A DNA stretch of 63,884 bases from Planctomycetota bacterium (lineage in GTDB: Bacteria > Planctomycetota > Phycisphaerae > UBA1845): NCBI GenBank assembly GCA_038043285.1, contig JBBTCJ010000068.1:1-63884 (forward strand). Reading direction: 5' to 3'. Each line of letters starts with the position of its first letter. Position 1 is the first letter of the stretch. Shown here piece by piece: positions 28,665-59,827 of this stretch. The position numbers and the translations under genes are program-made. Below the pieces are notes generated by a model. The model was not told the origin of the DNA, searched no databases, and was given only the letters and a program-made list of their open reading frames with translations.

Positions 28665-31600
28665 ATGCAAGTCCTTGCGCGGCTCTTCGGCTTTGCCGGC
28701 ACATTCGCCGGCTTGTTTTTTTTCGTAGGCGTGATCACGACGCGGCCGATCGCCGCGGTCTACGTGAAGGGCGTGGAAGCGGTCCATGCACCGATTGCTG
28801 ACGATGCGGAAGAGGGGTTGACAAAAGCGGGGCACTCTTACCCGCCTGCGACCGGCAACGTTGCACCTCGCCGCAGCGCCGCGACCGCGGGCGATTGGAC
28901 GTTGCGGAAGGGAGATGCTTCGAATCGTACGGCTCGATCGCCTCGAACTGTTTCGGCGGTCGGACACCTGCCGCCATCCACCCCGATGATCGTGAACTAC
29001 AAGGACGACGAGCCGTCGCGGATGCGGGCCGCCGGTTTGTTGAAGGGCGCACTTCCGCTTCCGCTGGAAGGATCCATCGCGGCGGGAGGGTGCACGTTCG
29101 ACATCGAGTGCGACGATGCCAACCCCTGCACGCGCGACGTTTGTGAGATTGACGTATCGCAGGGCATGGGGAGCGGAAAGTGCTCGCACGCCGCGGTCTC
29201 GCCCGGCGAACCCGGCGATTGCGACGACGGAGTGTTCTGCAACGGGCGAGAGTTCTGCAACAGCGGCGGAGTGTGCCAATCCGGTCTTGCGGCAACGTGT
29301 TGCACGGGCGGACCAGGAAATGACCCGCCGCAGCAGTACTGCTCCGAGAACGCCGGCCTGTGTGCCGACGACGCGCCACTTCCGGGGAAGCTCTGCGCCG
29401 CAGACGCCGATTGCGGCGGCAAGGAATGCAACCATTGTCGAGCGATCTGTTCCACGAACGCGGATTGCGGCGATGGCTACGTTTGCAACGGCGTGGAAAC
29501 TTGTGCCGGCGGCCAGTGCGTTGCAGGAGTTCCGCCGTGCGGCGGAGGGGCCTTGTGCTCGGAGAAGAAATGTAGCGGCACCCCTACGACTGCCTGTGTC
29601 GACGACGCCGACTGCCCCAGCGGGCAGACGTGCACGGGAGCAGGGCCTGTCTGCTACTTCGGACGATGCTGCGATCCCATCAACCCGGCGACGTGCAGCA
29701 CTCTGAAGCTTGCGAACTGCACCGGTGGCAAACACTGGTACGCCGGTGACGCCGGTAGAGAGAACGGCGCCGCCAACACCTGTGGTGGAGTCAGCCCGAT
29801 CAACCCGGGCGTACAACTTGGCTGTCCAAGGTACACCAGCGGCATTTCCCAGCTCGGATTGACGCTCCCGTCTCATCCCGTGACCGTCGGACCGGTGTCG
29901 GCTTCGGTTGTCGCGGTTTCCCCACCGAACGGACCGGGAGCGGCGCTGAACCGTCTGGGTGACGACTACCAATTCGATCCTTTCGACCCTTCCACGCACA
30001 TGATGCTCGTGGCCGTCCGATTCGTCGGCTATGTGTCGGTTCCGGACGCAATCTTCGTCGAGTTCTGGGACGAGAACGGGAACTTCATCGAAGAACTCCA
30101 AGTGCGACCTTCCCTGGCTGCGGCCGTCAACCTGGTTTACCTCGAAGAGCCTCTGGTGATTCCGCCACGCGGGTACATGACCGCCGTGACCAAGCGTGAG
30201 ACCGGACCGGATGTGAGGTTCTTTTGGTTGTCGGCAACGACGGTGAACGAGGGCGCGAACGACCCGAGCAAGCTGTTCGTCAACAACGACCCGAACGCGG
30301 CCAACTTCATGGGCTTGTCGCCCGGAATCCTCTCTTTTGAGCTGGTTGGGTCGATTGTCATCCCGCCGCTTGGCGGATGCTGCGATCCGATGACCGGTGC
30401 GTGCGGCAACGAGTTGGAATGGGTCTGCCGGGGCGATGGGCGTACCTTTCAAGGCGTTGGAAGCTACTGCAACACTTGCCTGTTCGGCAGCAACACCGGC
30501 GCTCCTTGCAGCCGGTGCTCGGGCGGGGGAACGCCGGGCGCGTCGTGCAACGCCGACGCGGATTGCTCAGGGGGAACCTGCACCGCGGATAACGCCGTGT
30601 GCAATGTCGGCTCGAGCACGTGCAGCAACGACGCGTCGAACACCTGCACGTCCAGCGCGGAATGCGTGGCTCGTTCGAATGTCTGCAGCAATCGGGACCA
30701 GGGTTGCGTGTTCAGCAGCGACTGCCCGCCGGGCGGCGTTTGTGGCGGCGCGGGAACCTGCGAAGCGGGCCTTTGTGCGACCCTCGATGCGTGCGGCGTC
30801 GGTGCCTGCTGCAACTCGACCACGGGAGCTTGCACGCCCGACACCGCCCTCGGCGGATGCACAGGAGGCGGCGAAACGTTCCTCGGCCTGGGCACGGACT
30901 GCGACCCGAACTGCTGTCCGCAGCCGGCTGGCGGCTGGACCGGGGCCGATGACTGTCAGAATGCCGTCATTCACTGGATTCCTACGCTGAACCCCTACGA
31001 TCCACCCTATGTCATCACCATCACCGGCGACGATTCGTACGCATCCAGCACGCTGGCGAATCCCGATTCCTGTTTCGGACCGCCGACGTCGGTGGCGAGC
31101 GACCTCGGTTGGTGGCAGAGTTTCTTCTTGACCGGAAGCTGCACCCGCGTACGAATCGACCATTGCGGCTCATCCCCGACGCAACGCGGGAGCTGGTCCT
31201 GGCTGGCGAGAGATTGCTCGTGCAACGAGATGGTCAACGCGACCCCAGATCCCTACATCACCGGAGTGGGCGCCACGGGGTACGGATCTCCATACTGCGA
31301 CGATGCGAATGTGTGGATGCAATTCGGGTTGCTGGGCCCGGGCGAGTATTTTTATTCCACGCTAAACAGCCTGCAAGTCGGCGGCGGACCGTACCAGATG
31401 CACATCGTCGCCGAGGGCTGTCCCACGGCAGCTTGCTGCCGACCCGACGGAAGCTGCATCGACGACGTCAACCAACACGAATGCGACGCTCTCGGAGGCA
31501 TCTTCCTCGCTCCACCCCAGCAGTCCCCGGCCATTGCGCTTTGTGTGGGAAGCCCGGGAGCCTGTGCCACGGGTTCGTGCTGCACCGGGCCTGGTCAGTG

Positions 31601-34600
31601 TCAGGACGAGGTCTTTGGCGCTGCCATCGACATGCCAACATGCGAGGGCCTGGGTGGTCGGTATCTCGGCGGCATTAGGTGCCAAGGCGGATACTGCCAA
31701 AACGATCCACGCTTCTCGTGCGGGTCGGACGCCGATTGTGCCTCGCCCGGTCCGGGCGGAATGTGCGTAGGCCTGGCGCAATCGGAGGCTCAACCCAACC
31801 CCTGCCCGGCCTGCGAGATCACCGGCGTAGGCAACTGCCAGACGTGGGACGATCACGGAAGTCTCACGCCGTCCGACGTTCGAATGGGCGCAATCGTGGC
31901 CGATGATTTGATAGCCGGTCCTGGAACGGGCCAGATTTCCCAGGTCTGCGTGTGGGGCGCGTATCTGGTCAGCGACGCGGATCGATCGTCGATGATCGAC
32001 TGTTGGCAGGCTGCGCCGTCTGACAACTTCAGCGTGAGGATTCTCGCCGACACAGGGTTCCATTTCCCTGACCGCAACGTCGTCGTGGGACAGTCCGCCG
32101 TGATGGTGCAGCGGGCCATCGAAGAAACGGCGTCCTCTCGCACGGCCGACCCTCCCTACGAGACCTTCGGGTACCAGCTCACGCTGATAACGCCGATCAC
32201 TGGGTTGGTTCCCGGCACGGTTTACTGGCTTGAAGTGACCAACGACCTGCCGGCATCCATCGACTGCAACTGGAATTGGAGCTCCCTTCGTCCGGGTTCT
32301 AGCGCCGGGAACCAATACTCTGTCTTAGGCACCGCCGATTTCGGATACCCGCCCTGCGGCGGCGCGTCACCGCAGGACTTCGCCTGGTGCGTGGGGGGGG
32401 CGATTGAGGTTCCAGCGCCGCCGGTCCGATCCGTCTGCGACTGCATGGGCAACTGTCAGTACCAAACTGCCGCGGAAGCGATCGTCAATCGTCATGAATG
32501 GTGTGCGAACGCCGTCGACGATGGTGGCGGCCCGCTCATTTGTGGATTGAACTACTTCTGTCCGTCCGACCCGTCGCCGTCCAACGACGAATGTTCGGCG
32601 GCGGCGCCAATCCCCGTCGGCCTGACGACGTTCAACAACGCATGTGCGGCCACCGACGGCTTGCCGACGATCAAGACCGACGATCGAGGGAATCGGACGC
32701 CGATCGTGGACGACGTTTGGTACAAGTTCGCCCCCCGCCAGAACTGCTTTCTCAACATCTCCATGTGCGGGATGGGAAGCCCGAACGCCAGTGGATTCGA
32801 TCCGGTCATGGCCGTGTACTCAGACGGAACGAGCCGATGTCCATGCCCTTTGGATGACGCGAACGCAGCCAGTACCTGGGTCGGGGGCAACGACAACGGG
32901 TGCATGGGCACGATGCTGGGCGGACCGTCGAGCGTGTCCGGCATACCCGTAAGTGCGGGGGAGTGCGTCACGATTCGCGTCGGGGGATCGCCGGGTCTGG
33001 GGTACGAGCGCGGCGCGGGCCTCCTCAACGTCACCTGCGGTGGTCCGGTTTGTGGCGACAACCTTGCGCAGCCGGGAATCGGCGAGGAGTGCGACGGCGT
33101 CGATGACGCGGCCTGTCCAGGCGGATGCAATCCGCCGGGCGATCCGAATGCGTGCAAGTGCTCGACTCCAGTTTGCCCGAACGGAAACCGCGAAGGTGCA
33201 GAGGAGTGCGATGGCGTCGACGCGGCTGCCTGTCCGGGTCTGTGCCAGTTTGACTGCACCTGCAGCGCAATCTGCGGCAACGGCCAGAAGGAACCGGACG
33301 AAGAGTGCGATAGTTCGGACGCAACGGCTTGCCCGGGTCGATGCCAGGGCGATTGCATCTGCCCACCGAGGATTTGCGGAAACGACTTCGTCGAGTTCCC
33401 CGAGGAGTGCGACGGAACGGATAACGAGAGCTGCGGCGGATATTTCTGTCGCCCGCCCGGCAACGCCGCAGGCGAGTGCACCTGTACTTGCGGCGCGCTC
33501 CCCATCGACGCGCTTCCGCTTTTGCCCGAACCGAATCCGACGGAGAAAAACCGATACATCTCGTTCGTAGTTGACCCCTTCGGCGCGGGTCAGCAGACGG
33601 CCCTGCGGGTGCGCCTGACGTCCTTGCACCACCCCATCGATCCGCCGCCCGGAACGCCGAACTTCACGGCGTTTGAGGGGCAATATCGCTACGTGAACGT
33701 CGTGGGAACAGGCACTTGCCCCGACTCACCGGTATTCGCCACGACTTTCAAGTGCGGCACGTTGTCCTGCACCCCCCAGTATCGTGACTGGGCCGCGGAA
33801 TTGGCCGGCGCGGTGTTGCACGTGACCGGGGCGGATATCGTCCCCAGCTCCATCTATGACGTAGCGATCCTTCCGGTGAGCTGCGCCGGGGTTGAGCTGG
33901 CCTGTGCAGGCGCGTCGACCGAATTGCCCGTTCGAACGTCGTTGTGGGGCGATATCACCGCCTACTTCGACGGTAGCCGCTGGCTCGCGCCGGACGGGTT
34001 CTATCCGAACTTCGATGACATCATGGCTGTCGTCCAGAAGTTCAAGGACACTGCAAGTGCGCCGATCAAGCCCCGCGTTCAAATGTACCCCAATGTGCCG
34101 AACCCGATGAATGATGTAAGTGCGATCGACATCGCGATGATCGTCGATGCGTTCAAAGGGCGTCCCTATGCGCTCCCCGGTCCGCAGACATGTGCCCTGG
34201 CCACGATCGGCAACGCACCCTCGCCAGGCGAAGCGATCGCGGTTGAATTGCTGGCACGGATAGGCCGAGTTCCTTCTTTGTCCGATGCGCCAGCGACAAT
34301 CGTCTCCGCAGCGGTTGCCGGCGTACCGAACATCAGCTTCGTTCCGGTGAAGGCCACCGGTCTTTATGCCGTCAATGGGAGCGAAATCCTCCTGGAACAG
34401 GGCGGCGTCAACGTCTTCCTGGAGATTCGACTCTCGGGTTGGGATCCCAACGGCGACGCCGTACCGACGCTGTCGTACTTCCAGGCCACGGTGGATCCCA
34501 TGAGCTACTTGGGGTTCAACGCGCAAACGACAGAACCGTTTGTCGATCTGTCGGCGGCCAGCGTGCCCTGCGCAACCACCGCAGAATGTACGGCGGCCTA

Positions 34601-35762
34601 CGGGCAGCCGGGGGCAAGTTGCGGTGCCGGCAAATGTGCTCCGGCTTTCCAGGACGTCACCAGGACGGACTGGGTATTCGCCGAATTTCAATCGAATGAC
34701 GTCATCGCCGCCATCCGCACGGCGCGACCTGAGTTTGCGTGGGGCGCCGCGGTCGGGTCATCGGGAGAAGGCGCATTGGACCGGGGGGCGTCGCTCTATG
34801 GCGGTACCCTTGTCCTAAACGTTCCGGCCGCGGCTGACGGAACCTATACCATCAACTTGATCAACAACCTGGCGCTGACCTTCCTGGTGGGCAACGATCT
34901 TCTGAGGGTTCCGGGACTCACGTTGACTCCCGCCAAGATCACAGTGAACAGGCTGCCCAAGGGCCGTTATCTGCCGGTAAGGACGATGAACGCCGGGCCG
35001 ACGGCGCTGCGAGTCTCGATGCTCGAGCTGTTCCGCCCCGTCCCACCGCACCTCGGCGCGCCGCCCGGCAGGCCGCTCCCTGATTTCTCGGCTTTCGAGC
35101 ATGGCATCTGCACCGCCGCCGGCGAGCAGAACAGTTGCTATCGCTGGGTCGGCCCGCCGGAACTGGTGTGCGAATACGGAGGACGGCCTCCGTGTATCGC
35201 CCCCGGGGAGGAGATGTGGATTGCACGTCTCCAATGCGAACCATACTTCGGCGAGTGGTGGCATATGCCGGACCCCATCTTTCTCACGGTGCACGTGACC
35301 GGGGCCGAAGTGCTTCCAAGTTCGCTGTATCGCATTGACCAGTGCACCGGCGTACTCGGTTGCGAGGACGTGATCTACAGCTTCGAGGTCCGCACCAGTC
35401 GTTGGGGCGACGTGGCTCCGCCCTTCCAGGACCGGGCCCGCGATCCCTCGACTCAGCCCACCATTGCCGACGTGACCGAGCTAGTGGATAAAGTCAAGCA
35501 ACTTCCCGGGAAGGCCCCTCGAGTCCGCGCCCAGCTTCAACCGAGCGTGCCCGGCATCGTTTCGGGCGTGAACGTTTTGGACATCGCCAACGGCGTGGAC
35601 GCACTGAAGGGGTTCCCGTACCCGTTCAGCGGACCATGCATTTGTCCGTCGGAGATGACCTGCGAGGTGCCCGGCGATTGCGCGTCGAGCACGGACTGCA
35701 CCGGAGGACGCAGCTGTGTCAACGGAAAATGCGGGGATTTGTGTGGACAATGCCGGCCATGA
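28665..35762 (+). CDS. Giant secreted Cys-rich modular protein (about 2365 aa) with two beta+dockerin-like modules and a cohesin-like domain
   Basis: AAGGAG RBS, signal-like N-terminus, GACC and CG...EECDG Cys repeats, two K.RY...VTG..IVPSS.Y...WGD modules. Confidence 0.85.
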   Translation: MQVLARLFGFAGTFAGLFFFVGVITTRPIAAVYVKGVEAVHAPIADDAEEGLTKAGHSYPPATGNVAPRRSAATAGDWTLRKGDASNRTARSPRTVSAVGHLPPSTPMIVNYKDDEPSRMRAAGLLKGALPLPLEGSIAAGGCTFDIECDDANPCTRDVCEIDVSQGMGSGKCSHAAVSPGEPGDCDDGVFCNGREFCNSGGVCQSGLAATCCTGGPGNDPPQQYCSENAGLCADDAPLPGKLCAADADCGGKECNHCRAICSTNADCGDGYVCNGVETCAGGQCVAGVPPCGGGALCSEKKCSGTPTTACVDDADCPSGQTCTGAGPVCYFGRCCDPINPATCSTLKLANCTGGKHWYAGDAGRENGAANTCGGVSPINPGVQLGCPRYTSGISQLGLTLPSHPVTVGPVSASVVAVSPPNGPGAALNRLGDDYQFDPFDPSTHMMLVAVRFVGYVSVPDAIFVEFWDENGNFIEELQVRPSLAAAVNLVYLEEPLVIPPRGYMTAVTKRETGPDVRFFWLSATTVNEGANDPSKLFVNNDPNAANFMGLSPGILSFELVGSIVIPPLGGCCDPMTGACGNELEWVCRGDGRTFQGVGSYCNTCLFGSNTGAPCSRCSGGGTPGASCNADADCSGGTCTADNAVCNVGSSTCSNDASNTCTSSAECVARSNVCSNRDQGCVFSSDCPPGGVCGGAGTCEAGLCATLDACGVGACCNSTTGACTPDTALGGCTGGGETFLGLGTDCDPNCCPQPAGGWTGADDCQNAVIHWIPTLNPYDPPYVITITGDDSYASSTLANPDSCFGPPTSVASDLGWWQSFFLTGSCTRVRIDHCGSSPTQRGSWSWLARDCSCNEMVNATPDPYITGVGATGYGSPYCDDANVWMQFGLLGPGEYFYSTLNSLQVGGGPYQMHIVAEGCPTAACCRPDGSCIDDVNQHECDALGGIFLAPPQQSPAIALCVGSPGACATGSCCTGPGQCQDEVFGAAIDMPTCEGLGGRYLGGIRCQGGYCQNDPRFSCGSDADCASPGPGGMCVGLAQSEAQPNPCPACEITGVGNCQTWDDHGSLTPSDVRMGAIVADDLIAGPGTGQISQVCVWGAYLVSDADRSSMIDCWQAAPSDNFSVRILADTGFHFPDRNVVVGQSAVMVQRAIEETASSRTADPPYETFGYQLTLITPITGLVPGTVYWLEVTNDLPASIDCNWNWSSLRPGSSAGNQYSVLGTADFGYPPCGGASPQDFAWCVGGAIEVPAPPVRSVCDCMGNCQYQTAAEAIVNRHEWCANAVDDGGGPLICGLNYFCPSDPSPSNDECSAAAPIPVGLTTFNNACAATDGLPTIKTDDRGNRTPIVDDVWYKFAPRQNCFLNISMCGMGSPNASGFDPVMAVYSDGTSRCPCPLDDANAASTWVGGNDNGCMGTMLGGPSSVSGIPVSAGECVTIRVGGSPGLGYERGAGLLNVTCGGPVCGDNLAQPGIGEECDGVDDAACPGGCNPPGDPNACKCSTPVCPNGNREGAEECDGVDAAACPGLCQFDCTCSAICGNGQKEPDEECDSSDATACPGRCQGDCICPPRICGNDFVEFPEECDGTDNESCGGYFCRPPGNAAGECTCTCGALPIDALPLLPEPNPTEKNRYISFVVDPFGAGQQTALRVRLTSLHHPIDPPPGTPNFTAFEGQYRYVNVVGTGTCPDSPVFATTFKCGTLSCTPQYRDWAAELAGAVLHVTGADIVPSSIYDVAILPVSCAGVELACAGASTELPVRTSLWGDITAYFDGSRWLAPDGFYPNFDDIMAVVQKFKDTASAPIKPRVQMYPNVPNPMNDVSAIDIAMIVDAFKGRPYALPGPQTCALATIGNAPSPGEAIAVELLARIGRVPSLSDAPATIVSAAVAGVPNISFVPVKATGLYAVNGSEILLEQGGVNVFLEIRLSGWDPNGDAVPTLSYFQATVDPMSYLGFNAQTTEPFVDLSAASVPCATTAECTAAYGQPGASCGAGKCAPAFQDVTRTDWVFAEFQSNDVIAAIRTARPEFAWGAAVGSSGEGALDRGASLYGGTLVLNVPAAADGTYTINLINNLALTFLVGNDLLRVPGLTLTPAKITVNRLPKGRYLPVRTMNAGPTALRVSMLELFRPVPPHLGAPPGRPLPDFSAFEHGICTAAGEQNSCYRWVGPPELVCEYGGRPPCIAPGEEMWIARLQCEPYFGEWWHMPDPIFLTVHVTGAEVLPSSLYRIDQCTGVLGCEDVIYSFEVRTSRWGDVAPPFQDRARDPSTQPTIADVTELVDKVKQLPGKAPRVRAQLQPSVPGIVSGVNVLDIANGVDALKGFPYPFSGPCICPSEMTCEVPGDCASSTDCTGGRSCVNGKCGDLCGQCRP

Positions 35763-36007
35763 ACGCCTTGACGATATTGGGGTAAGCGTTAACGGGCGTG
35801 GGTTGTGCGTTGAATCTTGTGAAAGAAAAACGGTTGTGTAATTGTGGGGGATTTGCAATGTCATCGCAGGTGAAGACGCATATGCCGAATCAGTCTACGG
35901 AAAAGGGAAGGTGCCGCCCCACCGTCATTCTTGGCCAAGCAGGAAATCTCGAAATGCCGTACCCCATTGCGCTTCGAAATTCTACGTGCGCCTTCGACTT
36001 CCTTACA

Positions 36008-39000
36008 ATGGAAGGAACTCGCCGCGGCGATTTTCGCAGGACGCCCGGTTCCATTTCTGTCCCATTGGCGCGTCTGTGCTTGGTTGCGTACGGGGTGGTC
36101 GGCGTCGCTTTGTTCTGCGCGCCGGCCTGGGGCCAAGAGATCATTCGGCCCAAATCGTCTTTCGAGGTGACAAGGGGCGTGCAGACGGGCACGGGCGTCG
36201 CGCCCCAATGGACTGCCGGTTGCCCAGTGACGGACGCTCCCACGGATGAACCGACGCCCATTCGCAAGAACCGATACCTATCCCTGCAACCTGGCAACGC
36301 CGGCATCCAGGTTGCTCTTCAGGTCGAGCTGATCGCCAGCGAGTATTTCCCCGCCTGCGTGGGGATTAAGAAGTGGGTTGGTCCGCCCGACGCCGCGACG
36401 GGAATCGTGCGGTTACAGGATGTACCCGAGTATCGCGACTGGAGCCTGGATCCGACCGTCATCCACGTCGGGGACGTGGAGATTGTCCCGGTTGCCTCCT
36501 ACGAGGTCCGCGCTATCGCGTTAGGGTGCGACACCGCCGAACCACTCAACTTTTCCGCCGCATTGGCGGTTTCGACGATCGATCGGCCCGGGTTCGAGTT
36601 TTGGGGTGATTGCGTGGGCTTGTTCAGCGGAACGTGGCCTGGTCCCGACGGCGTCGTGAATTTTGACGACATTGTGGCCATGGTTCAGTTGTTCAACGAG
36701 ACCGCGAACGCTCCCCCCATCGTTCAAATGGACCTCGCCGGCGCGCGCCCCGACGGCGTACTTAATTACGACGACATTTTTTGGGTGGTCCGCGCCTTCG
36801 ATTCCCAGCCCTACCCCTTCCAGTCTCCTTGTGGAGCAGTCGGGCAGACGGCCAGGGTCGCCGAACAACAGGCTCCGGCGCTCATGAGCTGCACCCTCGC
36901 CCACGACACGGTCGTCGTGGGCACGACGGAGGAGTTCACGATCTTCCTGGGCGATGCCGCGAACTTAGGCGCGTACCAGACCCAGGTGCGGATCACACCG
37001 GTCGGTACGGCCATCGACGGCGGGTTGTACATCGGATGCCCGCCACCGCCTCCCCCGCCGCCTCCCGGCGTCGAGGTATACACCACAGACGGTCGCTTTG
37101 TATTCCTTCCGGTCGGGATCCGCGACGTGACCCGTTCCTGCCCGACGCGGCGCCTGGGGGCCATGACGGCCGTCGGCGTAGGCGTGACCGTGCCGGCGAG
37201 TCCGCCGGGATACGTAGCCACCTACGCGCTGACGGTCAACAACACCGCGGTCCCGGGAACCGAGTACCGCGTCGCTATCGTGCCGAGCCGTGAGCCGTAC
37301 AACTCGCCCCTGGCCCCCAGGGAGGAATCCTTCGTGCGCGACTCCTCCGGCCTGCCGTTGCCCATGAGCACTGGATCCGAATGCCTCCTGCGGATTGCCG
37401 TGGACTGCCAGACCGTCGGGGTCGTCGGGCACGGAGTACCCGACATCTGCGACGTGACCCATCCGGGGAATTGTTCTTCGGTTTCCGGTTGTCGCGGCTA
37501 CGTCTGCGGGACGAGCGCCGACTGCGATGCCGATCTGAGACCGGATGAATGCGAGACCGACTTCGACGCCGATACGGTCATCGATGATTGTGACAATTGC
37601 CCGATGGTGTCCAACCAGAGCCAGTTCGACACCGATAGCGACGGCGTAGGAAACAATTGCGATAGCTGTCAGTCGGTTCCCAACCCCATGTTGGTCTCCG
37701 ACGGAACTCTCCCATGTGCGCCCGCAGCGGGCGAAATGTGGCAACTGGATTCGGATTGCGATGATTTCGGGGATCCATGCGACAAGTGTCCTGGTTTCGA
37801 TGATGCGCTGGATGCCGACTTCGACACCATTCCCGACGGGTGTGACGTGTGTGCAGGCGGTGACGACCGCGTAGACTGCGACCGGGATTTCATCCCCAAC
37901 CGGTGCGAAATCCGCACCAGTGACCAGGGGTTATGCACCGGTCCGGATTGTTCGACCGATTGCCTCACCTTCCAGGGACCGGTCACCATCGGCCCCGACG
38001 GCATGCCCGATGAATGCCAGATAGCGTGCGGGGAGACCTGCCATTTTCTGCCGGACACCGCGGGCATTGATAGTCCGACAGTGGAAGGCGCATTCGAGAT
38101 CCTCCTGCTGGACGGAACGTCGATGAGTGTTTCGGTTGGTGGCGGGGGTTCCACCTTGATTTCGAGAGGAATACCGCACAGTCATGGAGATGCGTTCGAC
38201 CTCAACGCGTCTGATGAGCCTTGCGCGCCGCCCGTGGACTTCCTGGCCAACCCGTCCGTCGGGCGCGAGACGCACGTGGCCATCGGAAATATGGAACTCT
38301 CGAACGGCGCCGTGACCGTCCGTGCGGGCCAGGCATACTTCGCCACAGTCAGCGGAAGCTCCCGGCAGACCTGGTACCAGGACACGCTCGGCGAGGTACA
38401 GGGGACCTGCTTCGACTTCCCGGCGGAATCCTTCTTTGACCTGTTCATGGAAATCGACACCGGCACGATGAAACTCTACAACAAGTCGCCGGTTGTGGTT
38501 CGGGCGGCGATCGCGGATCTTGGGTGGACGTTCCCAACAGCCGCGTCCATATTTGTGAATGCACCTGCGACGCCGGCTGTCCCACTCGTTGACGAATCCG
38601 GGGTGCAACGGGGTTACTTGCAGCGAGCGCAACTCGGGCGTGCGGCAAGGTTTCTCCCTGCTCAAGCCCTCGGATGCCGAACGTCGCCGGGACTGGGCGC
38701 ACCGCTGTCGTTCGTCATCGACGTGGATACGACGGGGCTACCTGTAGGAAGCTCACCCGACCCGAATGACGTTCGCAGCGACGCACCGCTCCTGCGAAAG
38801 AAGGTGACGGTCTACCAGGCACCGGGCGACCCATCCACGGCCGGTCCAAACCTGACCAACATGCGAGACAATACCTTGACCGGCAACGCCCCGGCCGAGT
38901 TTACCAGCGGCAATGCGATTCGAAGTCTGTCTTTCGGGCGTGACGGCAGCGGCGTTACGTCAACCGATCGAACGTCGCCGGCGATCGTGTTTTCCGTCGC

Positions 39001-40630
39001 CCCGAGCGCGCGTGGCACAGCCTGTTCCGACGTTTCCTCGGAAGCGCCCGACCCGCTGGCAAGCCCCGCGGATGGCGATCGAGTCGCGGCCGACTTGTTC
39101 GTCGCACAGGCAGGCCCGTTTGGGACTTACAATGGACCCGTCCTCCCCTGGTGTGACTCGAACCACGGCAACTGCCTGATCGCCGATCAGACTGTCCTGG
39201 GGCTGGGGCCTCTGGTTTCCGGCGGAGCCGGCGCGTCGGACAACCTGGTCGCGCTCGAGTTGAGCGAGTTCAACCCGACCAGCGGGCTGGCGTACCTCAC
39301 CTTCGATCAACCGTCGTTCGGTGGCGACAGCGCGACCATCTTCGTTTTCGATCCCCTCAACGGTCCGTTTCGACCAAGCTCATTGCGGACCTTCGCCGCC
39401 GCGGCCAATCTCGGCCTTGCGTCAGCGGACGAAATCGACGCGCTTGCGGTCTCGGACGTTTCACCACTCGGTCAATGGAGCGCCGGCGATGAAGTTCTCT
39501 TCTCCCTGACCCCCGGCTCCCCGGTCGCCGTAGCAAACGGGTGGTCCGGCGCGCATGTGTTCAAAGTCATGTTTGGTCAAGCGGCGGGGTTGGGACCGGG
39601 GAACATCTATATGGATCCCTCAGACCTCGGCATGCTTCCCGCGGATGACGTGGACGCTATCGACGTCGCCGTGATGGTGTTGGCGGATTGCAACAACAAC
39701 GGCCTCGAAGACCGTTGCGAGATCGCCCTGGGCCTCAGCGAAGATGGAGAGTCCGACGGTATCCCCGACGAGTGCGAGGACAAAAACCGATATGTGACCG
39801 TCCCGCCGAACGTCCTTCCCGCTGGTGCACGAGCGATCCGCGTCGAACTGATAACCCTCATGCAGCCGAATCCGCCGAACATTCCCCAGAATCCTCCGCC
39901 GGACTTCTCGGCCTTCCACGGCAAGACGCGATACGTCAACCTGGTGAGGATGTGTCGGGGCGGCGCGGAACCGGGCACGGTAATCTGTCGCGGTCAAGCA
40001 GAGTGCGACGCCCGTGGACTGGGTGGAAGCTGCGAGCAAATGCACACCTGCCAGGGGGGAAGCGAACCGGGCGGCATTCCTTGCGGCGGTTCCGGGGATT
40101 GCGATGGCCGCGGTCGAGGCGGAGTCTGTGCCCCGAGCATCATCTGCCGCGATTCGGAATCACTCGAGACGACGTTCCGCTGCGCCGTCGTGGATTGCGA
40201 CCCAGAATATTACGACTGGGGGACGGAACTGGGTGGGGCGGCGCTTCACGTGACCGGATCCGTCGTGGTACCCAGCTCTCTGTATCATGTACGAACCCTT
40301 GCCGCCAGCTGCCAGGGCAACGAAGACGTGTGCCTGGACGTGTCGCAAACCATCGTGGTGAAAACGTCCCGTTGGGGAGACACCGGCGCCCCATTCCAAC
40401 GTGCCGCCCCGATGGCCCTGGCCCAGCCCAACGTGCTCGACATCGCAGGCGAGGTCGACAAAGTGAAGGATCTGCTCACGGGCGTGTTGATCAAGCAGCG
40501 GGCCCAACTGCAACCCAACCGGCCCAACCCGATGGCCAACGTGAATGTGCTCGACATCGCCAACGTCGTCGACGCCGTCAAGGGGATTGAGTACCGGTTT
40601 CCCGGGCCGGAGCCTTGTGCTTCGGATTGA
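36008..40630 (+). CDS. Giant secreted modular protein (about 1540 aa): beta+dockerin-like module, cohesin-like domain, TSP3-like Ca repeats, second module
   Basis: Signal peptide ending APAWGQ. KNRY modules at both ends. DNCP..SNQSQFDTDSDGVGNNCD repeats. DGIPDECE. Start uncertain. Confidence 0.85.
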   Translation: MEGTRRGDFRRTPGSISVPLARLCLVAYGVVGVALFCAPAWGQEIIRPKSSFEVTRGVQTGTGVAPQWTAGCPVTDAPTDEPTPIRKNRYLSLQPGNAGIQVALQVELIASEYFPACVGIKKWVGPPDAATGIVRLQDVPEYRDWSLDPTVIHVGDVEIVPVASYEVRAIALGCDTAEPLNFSAALAVSTIDRPGFEFWGDCVGLFSGTWPGPDGVVNFDDIVAMVQLFNETANAPPIVQMDLAGARPDGVLNYDDIFWVVRAFDSQPYPFQSPCGAVGQTARVAEQQAPALMSCTLAHDTVVVGTTEEFTIFLGDAANLGAYQTQVRITPVGTAIDGGLYIGCPPPPPPPPPGVEVYTTDGRFVFLPVGIRDVTRSCPTRRLGAMTAVGVGVTVPASPPGYVATYALTVNNTAVPGTEYRVAIVPSREPYNSPLAPREESFVRDSSGLPLPMSTGSECLLRIAVDCQTVGVVGHGVPDICDVTHPGNCSSVSGCRGYVCGTSADCDADLRPDECETDFDADTVIDDCDNCPMVSNQSQFDTDSDGVGNNCDSCQSVPNPMLVSDGTLPCAPAAGEMWQLDSDCDDFGDPCDKCPGFDDALDADFDTIPDGCDVCAGGDDRVDCDRDFIPNRCEIRTSDQGLCTGPDCSTDCLTFQGPVTIGPDGMPDECQIACGETCHFLPDTAGIDSPTVEGAFEILLLDGTSMSVSVGGGGSTLISRGIPHSHGDAFDLNASDEPCAPPVDFLANPSVGRETHVAIGNMELSNGAVTVRAGQAYFATVSGSSRQTWYQDTLGEVQGTCFDFPAESFFDLFMEIDTGTMKLYNKSPVVVRAAIADLGWTFPTAASIFVNAPATPAVPLVDESGVQRGYLQRAQLGRAARFLPAQALGCRTSPGLGAPLSFVIDVDTTGLPVGSSPDPNDVRSDAPLLRKKVTVYQAPGDPSTAGPNLTNMRDNTLTGNAPAEFTSGNAIRSLSFGRDGSGVTSTDRTSPAIVFSVAPSARGTACSDVSSEAPDPLASPADGDRVAADLFVAQAGPFGTYNGPVLPWCDSNHGNCLIADQTVLGLGPLVSGGAGASDNLVALELSEFNPTSGLAYLTFDQPSFGGDSATIFVFDPLNGPFRPSSLRTFAAAANLGLASADEIDALAVSDVSPLGQWSAGDEVLFSLTPGSPVAVANGWSGAHVFKVMFGQAAGLGPGNIYMDPSDLGMLPADDVDAIDVAVMVLADCNNNGLEDRCEIALGLSEDGESDGIPDECEDKNRYVTVPPNVLPAGARAIRVELITLMQPNPPNIPQNPPPDFSAFHGKTRYVNLVRMCRGGAEPGTVICRGQAECDARGLGGSCEQMHTCQGGSEPGGIPCGGSGDCDGRGRGGVCAPSIICRDSESLETTFRCAVVDCDPEYYDWGTELGGAALHVTGSVVVPSSLYHVRTLAASCQGNEDVCLDVSQTIVVKTSRWGDTGAPFQRAAPMALAQPNVLDIAGEVDKVKDLLTGVLIKQRAQLQPNRPNPMANVNVLDIANVVDAVKGIEYRFPGPEPCASD

Positions 40631-44822: not shown

Positions 44823-46820
44823 ATGGTGATGAACAGGGGAAAGTTGTTGGAGTCCGGCGTTCGGGTGGCGGCCGTCGTGGCAACGTTAGCGCTGAGTGGT
44901 ACGGTCCTTGCGCAAGAGCACGGTCTCGGCGCGACCAAGGGCTGCAATCCGCGCTGCGTCGGTGAGAACATGAACTGCACCATGACGGCGCGGTTCCTGG
45001 ATGACTTTGATGACGTGATCGTGTTGTCAGCCGCGTGGGACGAAGTGGCCTCGACGGGCGGAACGGTCCGCGTTCCCGCGGTGGGCGACCTGCCGATCAT
45101 CGCGGTGGTCGGCAATGCGGTGTGTACGGACGACGGCGGCGTTTGCAACCCAGCCACGGGTGCGAATTGCGCTCTTCCGTGTCGGATGGCCCAATCGGGC
45201 AGCACGGTCGGCGGACTGCCGGGATTGACGGGCAGCGGCCGCGTCCAGTTCGCTCAGAAAACGTACGTGATTCAGCCGGACGACCCGGCCAACCTCGCGG
45301 ACACCGTACAGTTCGCGTGGTCGGACGAGTGCAATTCGGGGCGCTTCGACTGCCCGCAGACGACGCTGGTGACGCCGGCCGGGTCCGCAACGATCGTGAA
45401 AACCTGCGGGGACGGCAACGCATGCACGGAAGACGTGTGCGAGTTGGGCGTGTGCAGCTACATCGCCGAGTGCGGCAGCGCCGCGGACTGCGCGGACGGC
45501 GACGAGTGCACGCAGGACGTGTGTACGCCCGACGGATGTTGCGAGCACCCGCCGGTCGTCTGCGATGACGACAACGGTTGCACGGAGGATTCGTGCGACT
45601 CGGCTGCCGGATGCGTCTATACGCCGGAGTGCCTGGGCGCGGATGATTGCGACGACCAGGACGCCTGCACGAGCGACACCTGCTCGGTTGCCGGATGCTG
45701 CGAACATGCGCCGGTCGTGTGCGACGACAACAACAGTTGCACCGAGGATACCTGCGACTCGGGCACGGGCTGCGTCAACATTCCGCAATGCGTAAACGCC
45801 GATGACTGTGGCGACAACGATGCGTGCACCAACGACATCTGCACGCCCGACGGTTGCTGTGAGCACACCCCGGTGGTCTGTGACGACAACGACGCCTGCA
45901 CGCGGGACTCGTGCGACGCGGCCACGGGTTGCGTTCGCGACGCGATCACGTGCGAGGACAACAATTCCTGCACGGCGAATTCGTGCGTTCCCGCCACGGG
46001 TTGCGTCTACACGCCGGAATGCACGTCGGACGCGGATTGTGAAGACCAGGACGCCTGCATCAGCAATACCTGCTCGGCCGAGGGCTGCTGCGAAGATGCA
46101 CCGGTTATTTGCGACGACCGCAACTCCTGCACAACGGACTCGTGCGATTCGGCCAGCGGCTGCGTCTACGTACCGGAATGCACGTCGGACGCGGATTGCG
46201 ACGATCAGAACGCGTGCACGACGGACAGCTGCTCGGCTTCGGGTTGCTGCGAGCACGCGCTGACCATCTGCGAGCACCGCGCCTGCTACACCGGAACCTG
46301 TGACCCGGCAGGCGGTTGCGCGTTTGAACCGGTGGTTTGTTCACCGGACAATGACGTCTGCACGACGGAATACTGTGATCCGACGCAAGACGCTTGCGTG
46401 TCCGCTCCGGCGAATCCGATGCCTCCGGAGTGCGTCGAGGGCGAAGGGTGCACGCCGGGCTTCTGGAAGCAGCCGCAGCACTTGCAGTATTGGATCGGGT
46501 ACACCCCGACCGACGTCTACGATAAGGTCTTCGGGGTCAGTTCATTCGGCAACATGACGCTGCTTCAGGTGCTGGGCCAGGGCGGCGGCGGCAAGATCGC
46601 GCTGGGTCGGCACTCGGTCGCGGCGTTGCTCAATGCGACCAGCGGCGAGGTTGATTATGCCTACACCGTCGATCAGATCATCGCGATGGTGCAGGAGGCC
46701 TACGCCACCGGCGATTTCGAGGGCGCCAAGAACTTGCTGGCGACGGAGAACGAGCGGGGTTGCTCGGTCGACAAGTCCCGGTCTGGCGGGAAGACGGGAA
46801 TTTCGCGCGGCGGACGGTAG
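44823..46820 (+). CDS. Secreted Cys-rich repeat protein with C-terminal GCTPGFWK domain
   Basis: AAGGAG RBS, signal peptide (VLA|Q), five ~53-aa units of CDD.N.CT.D.C type. Confidence 0.88.
   Translation: MVMNRGKLLESGVRVAAVVATLALSGTVLAQEHGLGATKGCNPRCVGENMNCTMTARFLDDFDDVIVLSAAWDEVASTGGTVRVPAVGDLPIIAVVGNAVCTDDGGVCNPATGANCALPCRMAQSGSTVGGLPGLTGSGRVQFAQKTYVIQPDDPANLADTVQFAWSDECNSGRFDCPQTTLVTPAGSATIVKTCGDGNACTEDVCELGVCSYIAECGSAADCADGDECTQDVCTPDGCCEHPPVVCDDDNGCTEDSCDSAAGCVYTPECLGADDCDDQDACTSDTCSVAGCCEHAPVVCDDNNSCTEDTCDSGTGCVNIPQCVNADDCGDNDACTNDICTPDGCCEHTPVVCDDNDACTRDSCDAATGCVRDAITCEDNNSCTANSCVPATGCVYTPECTSDADCEDQDACISNTCSAEGCCEDAPVICDDRNSCTTDSCDSASGCVYVPECTSDADCDDQNACTTDSCSASGCCEHALTICEHRACYTGTCDPAGGCAFEPVVCSPDNDVCTTEYCDPTQDACVSAPANPMPPECVEGEGCTPGFWKQPQHLQYWIGYTPTDVYDKVFGVSSFGNMTLLQVLGQGGGGKIALGRHSVAALLNATSGEVDYAYTVDQIIAMVQEAYATGDFEGAKNLLATENERGCSVDKSRSGGKTGISRGGR
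45468..46330 (+). repeat. Intragenic ~159-bp tandem repeat (about 5 units)
   Basis: For example ccggaatgcacgtcggacgcggattg recurs 159 bp apart near 46015 and 46174. Confidence 0.8.
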
Positions 46821-47108: not shown

Positions 47109-47876
47109 TTACTCCATCTGATGACAGGTCATGCAGAGCCGGGAGCCTTCGATGGGCACACTGAGGAGCTTGGGCGTGGAGGCATAGAGGTTGTGACACG
47201 AGAGGCAACTGACGGCCCCGCCGGGCAGTCGGACGGCTTCGGGAAGCAGCGTCGCCGGGCGCAGCCGCACGTTGGCCCGCGTTTTTCCGGCTCTGGGATA
47301 AGACACGCCCACGGGGTGGTTGCGACCGCTGTCGCCCACGGATCCACCGCCGCGGTTCCAGGGCGTGTCATAGGCGGCCTCCCCCGCATTCACGCCGTCG
47401 TGACACGACAGGCATTGTCGCGTGCCGTCGTCGACCGATCGGGCTGACTCGCGTTCGTCCGACTCCGGCGTCACGTGGGCTCGTGACATCGCCATCCAGT
47501 GCATTCCGGCGGCCGTCCAATGCGTCGGGTCGCGGTGGCAGTTCAGGCAGAAGTCCGTTGGATCGTCCGCGGGTTCATGCCCCCCACGAAGCATCGGCTT
47601 GCCCTGCCCGCTAAGCGAAGGAAGGGATGCGTGACAGGTGGTGCAGGTGATCGTTCCGTCCGGGGCCAAGGGCCAGCCGGTTGGAACCTTCACCGACGAC
47701 GAAGGCACAACCCCGACCGGGTGATTCAGCATCCCCGGCCCCTTCCGGAGGCGATCGGCGAGGTTCGCCTCCTGGTCCGGCCAGCCGGCGGCCAGGGTCA
47801 GCGTCGCAAGGCACGGCATGGTCAGGAGAACGTAGAACGGTCCTATCGCGTGAACACGCGGGCGCTTCTTCCCCAT
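47109..47876 (-). CDS. Pentaheme cytochrome c (doubled-CxxCH family)
   Basis: Signal peptide. CTTCH, CLNCH, CLSCH, CLSCH, CMTCH. Two NHPVGV motifs. Confidence 0.9.
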   Translation of the reverse strand: MGKKRPRVHAIGPFYVLLTMPCLATLTLAAGWPDQEANLADRLRKGPGMLNHPVGVVPSSSVKVPTGWPLAPDGTITCTTCHASLPSLSGQGKPMLRGGHEPADDPTDFCLNCHRDPTHWTAAGMHWMAMSRAHVTPESDERESARSVDDGTRQCLSCHDGVNAGEAAYDTPWNRGGGSVGDSGRNHPVGVSYPRAGKTRANVRLRPATLLPEAVRLPGGAVSCLSCHNLYASTPKLLSVPIEGSRLCMTCHQME

Positions 47877-48350
47877 GCAATTCTCTCAGGACGATTTCGA
47901 ACCGGGGCGTAGAGTGCGGACCGGGGACAGAATCATCCCACGGTCGGCGTGGCGGATCGCGCGAACGTCCGGCTGCGCTGCGCGGAGGATTAGACCGGTC
48001 CAACTCGAACCGGGTCGCCAGGGAACGCCCTATTTCGGACGTACGATATCGACGGTAAGAACCTGCCCGCGCGGATCGGCAATCTCCGCCGCCCGAAAGT
48101 GGCGTTCGCCACAGACCCGTAAGAACGGGGATCTTCGGACGACGCGCCAGTCGCAAGAATCTTCCCAGACTTGGGAACTCGGCATGACCTCTGCGGCGCG
48201 AAAGGACTGGTTGCGCCGCACTGGACGGCCTCGACATCGTCTCCACCCAGCGGATCCTCGTGCGGCACGACTCTTGCACACCATCGGTCCGGTAGGGTGA
48301 GGCCGCGCGCGGAGCCGGCGCATCTCCTCTCGTCCTGGAGCGGGAACACC

Positions 48351-51300
48351 ATGTTCACAATCGCCATCGGTCCAATGCTTGGATTGGCTGTCGGTCAGCT
48401 CTCACCGCTGACCCACCAGATGACCTGGACGCAGGGGCTGGACAACCCCGCGCGCCTTGCCGAGGCCGACGGAACGTGGTTGATCGCGGACACCCGCGCC
48501 GACCGCGTGGTCCGGTACGACTCGTCCGGGGCGTACCTCGGCGAATGGGCGGAACCGGCGGGTCCGGTGGGAATTGCGGCGCATCCCGACGGACGGATCT
48601 TCGTGTCGCGGCGTGACGATCGGCGCGTGGCCGTCCATGACGCCCAATACGCTTTTCTTGGGTTCCTCGGAATCGGCGCGGTCAGTTTCGTTGAACCGAC
48701 GGACCTGGCGATTGATCCTCTCACGGGACGAATCTACGTCGTTGATACCGGGGCCGATCGCGTCTATGCCTTCCACTCGAGCGGAACCCTCGCGGTGATG
48801 TTCGGCTCCTGCGGCAGCGGCTTCGGACAGTTCAAATACCAGACGGCCGTCGCCGTTGATCCGTTCACCAGCCGCGTGCTGGTCGCTGACCAGGACAACT
48901 TTCGCGTGCAGGTCTTCGACACCGCGGGCATGTTCCTGTTCTCGTTCGGGTATCGCATCAAGTATCTTCCGAGCGGAACGAGCGCCGGTTGGTTCACGCG
49001 GACCGCGGGGCTGGCGACGGACGGCGCCGGGCGCATCTACGTCACCGATGCGCTGATGGGAACGCTGCGTATCTTTTCCCCAAGCGGACTTGAGCTGGGA
49101 GAGGTCGTCGGTTTTGGCGCCAATCCCGGTGAACTCCAAAACCCCGGCGAGGTCGCGCTCGACGGATCGGGTCGGGTGTACGTTGCGAACGCCAACGTCG
49201 GCACGGTCGAGGTCTACGATGCCCCGTCGCCGTCAATGCTCGCCGCCGTCTCGCCGGAGTGGTTTTCCGGAACCAATGAAACGGTCTCTGATCGCCTGAC
49301 GAGTCCGGTGCGGCGCACGCTTCCGTGGTATGACAAGCTACGTCGAGGCACGCAGCGGTTGACTGAAGAGGGAGTCACTGCGACCTCCAGTTGGGACGCG
49401 CCGCACATGTTGTCCGACCTGAGCTGCGGGCGGTGTCACAACGTGCCCGACCAGCCCTTGGGACACCTCGGCACGCTCGACGGGCAGACCAACCTGTGCC
49501 TCTCGTGCCACAACGGCGCGGGTCAGGCACTGGAAGCCTCGTTGCGAACGGCGGACCGGGTGTTGATCTCGCTAAACACGGACAGCGGCGGGCGATCGCA
49601 CGCCTGGGGTGTGTCGGCGATCAACTCCGCCGTCGGGTCGGTTGGACCGCCGGCCGGCAGCGAGATGGCGCGTTATCTTTCCTCCGGGAAGATCAAGTGC
49701 GCTACTTGTCACGACCAGCATTCGCAGATCGCGGGCAGGCCCTACCTGCGAACGAAGAATGACTCCGGCGGGTTGTGCAAACAGTGCCACGCCGAGCACG
49801 TCGGTCACACGCCGCGAGGATCGTGGCAGCCGACGTGCAACGAGTGCCACGACGCGCACAACCCGAACAGCGACAATCTTGGGCTGATCCGTACCGACGT
49901 GCGTAACCGCACGCTCGGCCTCGACAAGGCGGTGACGCTCGTCGCACGAACGGGTCCGGGCAGCTTCGACGACGGCGACCCTGCGGCCAACGACGGGCTT
50001 TGTCAGGTCTGCCACCTGACGACAGCCTATCATCGTCACGACGGATCGGGCGCCCCGCACAACAACGGGCAGGACTGTATCTCGTGCCATCCGCACGACA
50101 ACGGGTTTCTGCCCGTGAGCGGAGGCGACTGCACGTCGTGCCATGCCGTGGCACAGGACAACGGCGACGGCGTCCCGGTCGGCGGCCGCCGCGCGGTCGT
50201 CGGCGAATTCCCCGCGACCGACGCCCACGCCCATTACGGCGCGACGCTGGGAGGCGACGCCTGCGTCGTCTGTCACGACATGACCACGCATCAGGACGGC
50301 TACGTCGACCTGCTCGACGCCGACGACGGGAGTTTGTACAGGTTCCAGAAGCCCGGCGACCTGGCCGGCGACCCCGACGTTTCCAACTTCTGCATGAGCT
50401 GCCACGACCCGGACGGAGCAAGCAGATTTACGACGCCGCTGGATCCGTTCAACAACGGCAATTCCCCGCCCGCGGTGGCCGCGAAGTTCCTGGGCACGCT
50501 GCAATGGGACGAGCAGTACGGCGACTTCTGCTTCGGAACGGAGGGAACCCTGCGCGGCGTCAACAGCCACCACGACGTCCGCGACGCCGATCAGGCGTTT
50601 AGCGGGGCGAAGATCGAATGCCTTGACTGCCATGGCGCACACTCCGCCGGAGCATCGCAGCCGCTCGTGGATCCGTTCCACGCCACGCAACCTTGGACCG
50701 GGAGCAACAATGCCTTCTGCTTATCGTGCCACAACGGCGGCACCGGTCCGCTGGATCCGGGATTCCCCGCCGGCGTGTTCGGTCCGGCGATCGACACCAC
50801 TGACCCACGTTGGGCGTCCTTGGGCATCAACTGGACGACAACGCTCGGCGGCGCCTGCGTCGGCGGCGGGTGCTCCTCACTGCGCGGCATCGACTCCTGC
50901 GACTATGTGGATGGACCCTGGTACGTCGATTACTCGTGGACCCACTCCGCCCACGGACCGGATTCGAAGCGCGGGTGGAACGGCTATTCCGGCGCGCCGG
51001 GCGCGGACATGGATTGCACGACCTGTCACGACCCGCACGGTTCGACGACAGCCACGAACCCAGCAGGCAACCCCTACATGATTCGCGACGCCATCGACGG
51101 GACGGCCTTCGTCGACGACGGCACGCGCAGCGGCGGATTCAACGGTCCGCCGTGGAACGCCTACGGCACGGGCCGCCCCGTCGTCGTCCCGGTCAGTGGG
51201 ACGACCGTCGGCTGGGGAGCGGGCAGCGGTCTCTGCGGAGCTTGTCACGCCAACTGGATACAGGCCTATGATTGGCATGAGTTCTGCAACGGCTGCCAGA

Positions 51301-51543: not shown

Positions 51544-52371
51544 ATGGCCCGGAAGAACACCAACCGATTCCGCGGAGGCATGGCTGCGGCGATGGTCTGG
51601 CTGTGGACCGCCGGGTACGTCCCGGCGGCCGACGTCACGGTTAACCCCGGCGCGGATGGAACTCTTGTTGACGGCGGTGTATTCGGGCTGTTTGACGGAA
51701 CCGCCGATGCCGCTGACTGGTACTTCAACGAATCGACCTACGAGGGCGCGATCTCGCTCTCGCGATCGGGGAATCTTCTGGAGCATCGCGTGGTCTTCGA
51801 GTTTAACCTGGGCACGGTCACCTATCCGACGCCGGTTCGTGCGATGTTCAAGTTCAAGTTACGCGGCGCGGCGCGGTTCCCGGCTGACCCGGCCGACGTC
51901 GCGGTCTTTTCGTATCCCGCGGACGTGCAGGAAACGCTGACGGATTTTTCCGCGGGTCCGGCGCAGCGCCTGGCGGTGCTGTCGGTTTCGCCGTTTCAGG
52001 CGCTGACGTCCTACACGATCGACGTGAGCGGTCCGGTGAACGCAGCCATTACGGGCGGGACCAAGAAGGTGGGGTTTCGCCTTCAGATCGACCCGCTGAC
52101 GTCGAGCCTCTCAAGCCAGGCGTTCATGGACATCCTGGAGAGCGATCCAACGACCAAACCGAGCCTGCGGATCTCGGACCAGGTGGCCGGAGATTTCGAC
52201 GGGGACCGCGACGTGGACCTCCACGATTTGGCCGCCCTTCCGTCGTGCATGAGAGGTCCGGCGATTACGGCAACCAGCGCCTGTCAGCCGCTTGACGCGG
52301 ACCTTGACGCCGACGTGGACCTTCTTGATTACGCCCGCGTGCTCCCAACGTTTACGGCTCCGCCGGTCTAA
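51544..52371 (+). CDS. Secreted protein with beta-sandwich and C-terminal dockerin-like domain
   Basis: Signal peptide. GDFDGDRDVDLHDLAAL..CMRGP...C..LDADLDADVDLLDYA duplicated Ca-loop. Confidence 0.8.
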   Translation: MARKNTNRFRGGMAAAMVWLWTAGYVPAADVTVNPGADGTLVDGGVFGLFDGTADAADWYFNESTYEGAISLSRSGNLLEHRVVFEFNLGTVTYPTPVRAMFKFKLRGAARFPADPADVAVFSYPADVQETLTDFSAGPAQRLAVLSVSPFQALTSYTIDVSGPVNAAITGGTKKVGFRLQIDPLTSSLSSQAFMDILESDPTTKPSLRISDQVAGDFDGDRDVDLHDLAALPSCMRGPAITATSACQPLDADLDADVDLLDYARVLPTFTAPPV

Positions 52372-59730: not shown

Positions 59731-59827
59731 CACTTCTCTCCCAGTTCCACAACGATCCACGGCCAAGTTCGCAGCAGCACATTGCGTCCGGGTGGACGGA
59801 TGGCGCTCGCGAAAAGTTCAAGGCCGT

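Follow-up and report, generated by a model that had tools for sequence, protein, structure and literature searches.

Two giant secreted proteins of a planctomycete as candidate parts of a cohesin-dockerin-type assembly system

The window analyzed here is a stretch of 63,884 nucleotides (contig JBBTCJ010000068.1, GenBank assembly GCA_038043285.1) from a Planctomycetota bacterium of the Phycisphaerae. Its interval 28665..40630 is occupied by two long open reading frames (ORFs) on the plus strand, encoding the giant proteins P0001 and P0002. These two proteins are probably parts of a lineage-restricted, non-cellulolytic extracellular assembly system of the cohesin-dockerin type. As the first-pass annotation of this DNA had described, each protein carries two plugs and one socket: two copies of a module, and one cohesin-like domain, which we call X in P0001 and Y in P0002. 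Each protein would therefore be able both to dock and to be docked upon. No Pfam model matched plug or socket in the window proteins, so that the system escapes standard annotation. The further proposal that the two proteins form a closed, self-polymerising pair had to be given up, as both are members of a larger set spread over the genome, with 35 ORFs that bear the module and 12 that bear a cohesin-like domain; 43 ORFs carry a plug or a socket.

In the arrangement that we propose, the plug would be a dyad of about 200 amino acids (aa), consisting of an FN3-like sandwich and a dockerin-derived three-helix part, that normally ends secreted proteins, including at least six peptidases. The socket, either X or the divergent Y, would mostly stand behind the signal peptide of scaffold or anchor proteins. 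Plugs would dock into sockets and thereby gather the cargo proteins at the cell surface, and P0001 and P0002 would act as adaptors or as chain-extending units.

The plug module and its dockerin-like tail

All four modules of the window are encoded on the plus strand: copy 1 at 33546..34193 and copy 2 at 34959..35640 in P0001, copy 3 at 36266..36832 and the C-terminal copy 4 at 39782..40619 in P0002. Alignment and profile searches confirmed these positions, as given in the first-pass annotation, and the residues that are invariant among the aligned copies (K, R, Y ... W ... HV ... P ... Y ... C ... WGD ... DI ... V.A ... Y ... P ... C) are the ones named in its consensus. Copies 2 to 4 are 39-47% identical to copy 1; copy 3 is the most divergent of the four, and the sandwich of copy 4 contains an insert of about 60 aa rich in Cys and Gly. 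Profile A2, built mostly from 24 other paralogs of the module, scored the four copies with E-values of 5.5e-88, 1.3e-83, 4.9e-60, and 2.9e-41, far beyond chance.

A profile made from the four copies had 37 matches in the organism's own genome (3.81 Mb, 192 contigs), which is the genome-wide copy count that had been proposed as a check. On ORFs of at least 150 aa the same profile found 36 module domains in 34 ORFs, and profile A2 found 37 matches in 35 ORFs. Among the 34 genomic copies that reach the end of the profile, 26 finish within 5 aa of the stop codon; eight are non-terminal, including three of the four window copies. Searched against 1.84 billion representative proteins, the four-copy profile matched 2914 at E<=1e-3, 2059 at E<=1e-10, and 784 at E<=1e-30. 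The best 150 of these include 107 in which the module ends within 2 aa of the C-terminus and 22 with at least two full copies, many of them with one copy directly behind a signal peptide; a recurrent form of about 700 aa has one module behind the signal peptide and a second at its end. In its placement, mostly at the extreme end of large secreted proteins, the module resembles a dockerin. Its named database relatives are each called "hypothetical protein" of Planctomycetota, and searches of Pfam and NCBIfam with the two window proteins and with 28 modules returned no model for it.

A search for related loci with copy 1 alone returned one locus. In four metagenome runs, the sole site at which contigs of other paralogs aligned to the window was 35563-35612, which encodes the conserved NVNVLDIA..VDA helix. 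With alignments confined to about 50 bases, this site acts in assemblies like a short dispersed repeat.

The AlphaFold model of copy 1, calculated with an alignment of 28 paralogs, is one compact unit (pLDDT 91.5, pTM 0.87), in which a beta-sandwich (residues 1-135) is followed by helices at residues 156-167, 175-178, and 193-203. When the whole module was used in fold searches, the lists were taken up by FN3 structures matching residues 1-160, and the helical part was barely probed; within that limit, there was no match to a solved X-module-dockerin (XDoc) chain. Six Cys columns are kept in 22-28 of the 28 module copies, and the final residue is Cys in 28 of 28; these six cysteines, including the last residue, probably lock the dyad by disulfides. 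Copy 3 retains two of the six and contains two PDG-V-(V/L)-N-x-D-D-I half loops.

Dockerins consist of two tandem segments, each with a 12-residue EF-hand-type Ca loop followed by a helix. The tail of the module is formed by two helix-bearing half-repeats with the pattern (N/D)V(L/x)D(I/V)A..VD, located at 33936-34193, 35394-35640, 36575-36832, and 40364-40619 in copies 1 to 4, respectively. Several divergent paralogs carry full EF-hand-type loops, such as WGDADGDQRIDVLDV and CGSDGLVNVLDI in the C145 ORF; in this ORF a dockerin hidden Markov model also matches at 2.6e-5 inside the module match. When the tails of six divergent modules were aligned with hhalign to the 13 Pfam-grade dockerins of the genome, the probability was 95.9% (E 6.4e-9) over 53 columns, with both repeats in register. 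Against the core module tail, to which the window copies belong, the same six-tail profile reached 99.7% (E 2.1e-26), and its controls gave 14.5% for reversed dockerins (E 0.0019) and 0.1% for the X family (E 0.49).

By these profile comparisons, the last 85 or so aa of the module are dockerin-derived, with the link running through intermediate paralogs. We read the module as a dockerin whose calcium ligands are largely gone and to which an FN3-like sandwich has been fused. The earlier description of the module as dockerin-like thus stands for its last third, and not for its first 135 or so aa, which form the sandwich; of the duplicated Ca-loop/helix pairs named in that description, the two helix-bearing half-repeats are present and the loops are degenerate. 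The plug is dockerin-derived and lies outside the sequence definition of the dockerin family (a Pfam match and two Ca-loop/helix segments). Sequence searches of the PDB with the profiles of the module tail and of X returned only cystine-knot or chance matches (E>=0.18).

The cohesin-like domains and their predicted binding

Domain X (34326..34949, plus strand), which includes a small cystine-rich insert, coincides exactly with the envelope of an independent domain family. Its predicted model is almost all strand, a nine-stranded flattened beta-sandwich that superposes on solved cohesins across the whole domain at 7-18% sequence identity. In the fold search, cohesin matches stood well above the adhesin rows and covered whole cohesin chains; 2b59, 5k39, and 5m0y, which we take to be type II/III cohesin-dockerin complexes, are among the matches. 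On this predicted model X has the cohesin fold, which bears out the proposal that the beta-rich domain after copy 1 is cohesin-like and places the socket in the cohesin fold family.

The corresponding domain after copy 3, Y (about 36866..37414, plus strand), has no BLASTP similarity to X (E 1.8), and as a single sequence it matched the X family in hhalign at 0.95%. With a profile of three Y sequences, in contrast, the probability of a match to X rose to 97.1% (E 5e-11), whereas controls gave 0.7% and 0.3%; by this profile comparison Y belongs to the X family as a remote homologue. The ESM Atlas returned only leads below 0.9 for Y, including one cluster with Cohesin in 13% of its members. The claim that this second domain is cohesin-like therefore holds at the level of profile homology to X.

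Within the genome, the X family comprises 15 domains in 12 ORFs, and 44 X domains occur in 35 of the best 150 database module proteins; X usually lies directly behind a signal peptide. Module and X thus co-occur in 35 of those 150 proteins, and they do so in all eight module-rich genomes described below. The only matches of the genome to the Pfam cohesin model PF00963 are outside the window, on C23 (46.4 bits) and C78 (22 bits).

Complex prediction with X and module copy 1, both given as alignments, reached a score of 0.56 (runs 0.59, 0.56, and 0.56), whereas the best of three controls scored 0.02. The runs share at least 96% of their contacts, and the pLDDT of the partners is at least 91. Of 80 solved complexes, 58 reach the mark applied to this score, as do 2 of 110 mismatched pairs; among passing cases, scores of 0.60 or less come from only 7 of the 80 solved complexes and from both of the passing mismatches. 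The modelling of module-domain pairs that had been proposed as a check thus lends weak support to binding between X and the module and raises its odds modestly. Because cohesin-dockerin complexes have already been solved, the pass may reflect likeness to these rather than binding.

Cargo, scaffolds, gene structure, and distribution

We scanned 40 of the 43 module- or X-bearing ORFs against Pfam, and the two window proteins separately; the C99 ORF was left out. Six peptidase ORFs end in the module, with the domains Trypsin_2, Peptidase_M14, Peptidase_S8 (two ORFs), M12B reprolysin-like, and M4 thermolysin. The M12B protein is the C41 ORF (Reprolysin_5/3/4 plus module) and the M14 protein the C118 ORF (Peptidase_M14 at E 5.7e-88 plus module). 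Among the other proteins that the module terminates are two GSDH propellers and RCC1, BNR, DUF7901, and RHS proteins, and about half of the scanned ORFs had no Pfam match. No glycoside hydrolase family was found at E<=1e-3 on the 40 scanned ORFs and none on the two window proteins, in agreement with the non-cellulolytic character suggested at first pass. A DUF7901 match, weak and below the cut-off (E 0.04), is also present in P0001 at residues 1094-1226 or thereabouts (window ~31887-32285), and an 1828-aa module-bearing ORF on C27 combines five strong DUF7901 copies (E 4e-179) with a Pfam dockerin.

Several ORFs have the architecture of scaffolds or anchors. The C145 protein consists of a signal peptide, three X domains, and a terminal dockerin-like module; a protein on C78 combines X, a weak Pfam cohesin, and a Pfam dockerin; the C7 ORF has FG-GAP repeats, X, and a Pfam IPTL-CTERM; and a 498-aa ORF on C185 has X and a hydrophobic tail of the IPT.. 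type, as judged by eye. The C145, C7, and C185 ORFs supply a multi-cohesin scaffoldin and cohesin-bearing anchor proteins, and scaffold, adaptor, anchor, and cargo parts are all present in the genome. The surface location of the assembled complexes, and protein degradation as their purpose, are inferred.

On contig C78, five adjacent genes (~7239-28957) carry the module, X, or both: two GSDH-module proteins, a protein with X followed by the module, a 1940-aa paralog of P0001, and the protein with X, cohesin, and Dockerin_1. Smaller clusters of module or X genes are found on C133 and C185.

The frame of P0001 (plus strand, ending at 35762) gives 2384 aa from a TTG at 28608; the alternative ATG at 28665 is residue 20 of the ORF and opens a hydrophobic N-terminal stretch. 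Residues 1-1854 are 50-54% identical to three further giant ORFs of the same genome. In two of these (1947 and 1940 aa) the module is the last element before the stop codon, and the third is truncated by the end of its contig. The counterpart of copy 1 is the terminal module in the complete paralogs, which place their stop codon in what is in P0001 a 44-aa linker (34194..34325), the point of read-through fusion. P0001 is therefore such a giant protein with an added tail of X, module copy 2, and a Cys-rich stretch of about 39 aa (35641..35762 with the stop codon, as read from the translation).

That the internal module of P0001 arose from faulty assembly could be dismissed. Four other public runs of three studies, all labelled groundwater metagenome, contain contigs that span the junction between copy 1 and the beta-rich domain with 0 differences, so that the continuous frame is not an assembly slip, and the database proteins P0010 and P0018 have the same order of module, X, and module as P0001. 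In P0019, P0023, and P0039 (about 2400 aa, from other genomes), the module-X unit is fused to a whole P0002, and on contig C78 a P0001-like giant is followed by a separate gene that opens with a signal peptide and X. From these arrangements, the neighbourhood of the pieces is conserved.

P0002 (35798-40630, plus strand) has 1610 aa when read from the GTG at 35798. Its true start is uncertain, the candidates being this GTG and the ATG codons at 35858, 35954, and 36008; database gene calls are 1590, 1557, and 1467 aa long. A stretch resembling a signal peptide, judged by eye, lies at about aa 88-112 and is followed by module copy 3, Y, thrombospondin type 3 (Ca-binding) repeats, about 600 aa without a match, and module copy 4. 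The repeats (37490..37675, plus strand) match Pfam TSP_3 at E 2.5e-5 with 24.3 bits against a cut-off of 25, and an NCBIfam MtsC-like stretch is found there as well. Residues 740-1320 had no usable match in the ESM Atlas. From their translations, both P0001 and P0002 are Cys-rich.

We compared 31 related genomes, including the organism's own (G000); G000-G018 belong to one family, and 12 genomes come from other families of the order. Eight of the 31 hold at least 20 module matches each (37, 34, 21, 20, 77, 23, 26, and 67), and three have one or two weak matches. The module was not found in the remaining 20, including all 12 from other families, nor at E<=1e-10 in 400 genomes spread evenly over the rest of the phylum, in which up to seven candidates per genome were scored. 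X occurs in 11 of the 31 genomes, among them all eight that are rich in modules. The Pfam Dockerin_1 count is 11-20 in these eight, whereas it is 16-136 in the 11 genomes from sister genera of the same family; within the family, module copy number and Dockerin_1 count are inversely related. The lower number of canonical dockerins where the module is abundant fits a replacement of the classical dockerin by the module. The related genomes are not independent, however, and the dockerin pattern may therefore be a single event. Pfam cohesin counts (0-9 per genome in the 31 genomes) have no pattern relative to the module.

Further Cys-rich and secreted-looking proteins are encoded elsewhere in the window. 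A 1110-aa ORF (56434-59766, minus strand) contains Dicty_CTDC repeats, a Dictyostelium-type Cys-rich repeat, and a terminal Pfam IPTL-CTERM sorting motif; this type of tail is shared with two cohesin-like-bearing proteins elsewhere in the genome. In a secreted-looking Cys-rich ORF of 665 aa (44823-46820, plus strand), Dicty_CTDC repeats match strongly (E 5.8e-41). The ORFs at 47109-47876 (minus strand) and 48171-51488 (plus strand) encode multihaem cytochromes (Cytochrome_C7, paired CXXCH), the latter, of 1105 aa, with additional NHL repeats. Pfam Dockerin_1 matches below its threshold (21 bits, E 0.0015) at 52186-52341 (plus strand), at the end of a 275-aa ORF (51544-52371) that has no other Pfam match.

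Alternatives, precedents, and significance

Several results weigh against an assembly system that joins the module to X or Y. Compared directly with the dockerins, the core module tail gave 9.5% in hhalign (E 0.0034), no better than the reversed control at 14.5%; the homology to dockerins is therefore transitive and rests on the intermediates. The Pfam models for dockerin (PF00404) and cohesin (PF00963) had no match on P0001 or P0002 at E<=1, and Dockerin_1 touched just one of the 28 modules, at E 0.64. A canonical Ca loop is absent from all four window copies and occurs in 2 of 28 genomic and 5 of 174 database copies, with no module containing two. The complex score falls in the weak band, and the prediction returned no interface. 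The 13 Pfam-grade dockerins of the genome could be the real ligands of X, and X is also present where the module is rare or was not found (11 X and no module in G011, 12 and two in G017, seven and two in G004). Finally, the phyletic pattern may reflect one clade and thus about one event.

The degenerate Ca loops, the 13 canonical dockerins, the occurrence of X in genomes with few or no modules, and the weak-band complex score are also what favours the main rival, together with the position of most copies at the extreme C-terminus and their invariant last Cys. According to this explanation, which we consider unlikely, the module is a C-terminal domain for sorting, export, or envelope attachment that directs about 35 proteins to a secretion or anchoring route of their own, and X and Y bind canonical dockerins or something else. 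A C-terminal sorting domain is expected as a single copy and only at the extreme C-terminus; the module, however, is non-terminal in 8 of 34 cases and present in more than one copy in 22 of the best 150 proteins, often with one copy behind the signal peptide, as in P0002. In proteins with internal or N-terminal copies, a C-terminal signal would not work. The homology of the tail to dockerins, the sharing of proteins and genomes between module and X, and the low number of canonical dockerins exactly where the module is abundant likewise argue against a sorting domain.

Less likely still is a self-contained surface network, rich in disulfides, into which P0001 and P0002 would polymerise by binding each other through their own plugs and sockets. 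Their two modules and one cohesin-like domain each, their adjacent genes, the fusion of their parts into one protein elsewhere, and their richness in Cys agree with such a network; however, the module ends about 30 other proteins and X is found in 11 other ORFs, so that the two proteins are not a closed system. To our knowledge, the dockerin of a scaffoldin does not bind the scaffoldin's own cohesins in cellulosomes, which we also weighed against this explanation. A role of the modules and cohesin-fold domains as spacers or as adhesins for external polysaccharide, protein, or mineral surfaces, with no partner in the cell, would suit the large share of cargo without an enzymatic domain, but we judge it very improbable given that cohesins rank well above adhesins in the fold search, with matches over whole chains, that the tail is homologous to dockerins, and that the architectures resemble scaffoldins.

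The closest precedent for the proposed assembly system is the "planctosome" hypothesized for freshwater Phycisphaerae (Andrei et al. 2019, ISME J, PMC6461901). According to that proposal, M12B reprolysin-like and M14 peptidases would be kept on the cell by a non-cellulolytic cohesin/dockerin machinery; the system includes large proteins with thrombospondin type 3 repeats, and its anchor consists of a lamin-tail domain (LTD) and P-domains (PMC6461901). Among the papers listed as using the word, none reports a test of the planctosome.

The system described here follows the same logic with partly the same cargo: an M12B ORF (C41) and an M14 ORF (C118) end in the plug module, and a large protein, P0002, carries thrombospondin type 3 repeats. 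It differs in several respects. The modules of the planctosome were recognisable, whereas both plug and socket are invisible to Pfam here; the plug joins an FN3-like sandwich to a dockerin part whose Ca loops are degenerate; and in place of an anchor with lamin-tail and P-domains there are tails of the IPTL-CTERM type. The Pfam scan of 40 ORFs listed neither a lamin-tail nor a P-domain, and no genome-wide search for these was made. Furthermore, the eight module-rich genomes hold 20-77 module copies each, and some of their proteins have the order plug-socket-plug.

In the XDoc dyads of clostridial and ruminococcal cellulosomes, an X-module is joined to the dockerin of type II/III cohesin-dockerin pairs. 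The module resembles these dyads in having a beta-sandwich directly N-terminal to the dockerin part, in its location at the protein's C-terminus, and in forming one compact unit (pTM 0.87). In contrast, its Ca loops are mostly lost, it has six conserved Cys, and it is found on cargo enzymes, not on scaffoldins alone; the likeness is one of layout, with no fold match. The type I cellulosome shares with the system many secreted proteins with C-terminal plugs, fewer proteins with one to three sockets, adaptors with both, and a socket of the cohesin fold; however, the cargo here includes peptidases, the scanned ORFs and window proteins are free of glycoside hydrolases, and the host is a planctomycete of the Gram-negative type. 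Peer et al. reportedly described recognisable cohesin and dockerin modules outside cellulose degraders, including Planctomycetes, in 2009; the family described here, in contrast, is detectable only through its fold and through profile-to-profile links.

A more specific version of the proposed system can be put forward only tentatively. In this groundwater Planctomycetota family, the Ca-dependent dockerin may have been replaced by a disulfide-locked and largely Ca-independent FN3-dockerin dyad that pairs with a Pfam-invisible cohesin. Plug-socket-plug proteins, of which the tail of P0001 and the head of P0002 could be examples, might then polymerise head to tail into chains and display peptidases and giant Cys-rich proteins as a proteolytic "planctosome" that extends itself, in contrast to a scaffold of fixed size.

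What is known of cohesin-dockerin assembly beyond cellulose degraders comes mostly from domain counts. The system described here escapes standard annotation as a whole, and its plug family, for which Pfam and NCBIfam have no model, counts 2914 representative proteins. Should the binding prove real, the plugs and sockets would amount to a concrete parts list for a peptide-degrading "planctosome" and to a case of a dockerin losing its calcium loops while gaining a fused sandwich. They would also offer new orthogonal plug-socket pairs for protein assembly, and they would give a domain name to many of the "hypothetical" giant proteins of uncultured planctomycetes.

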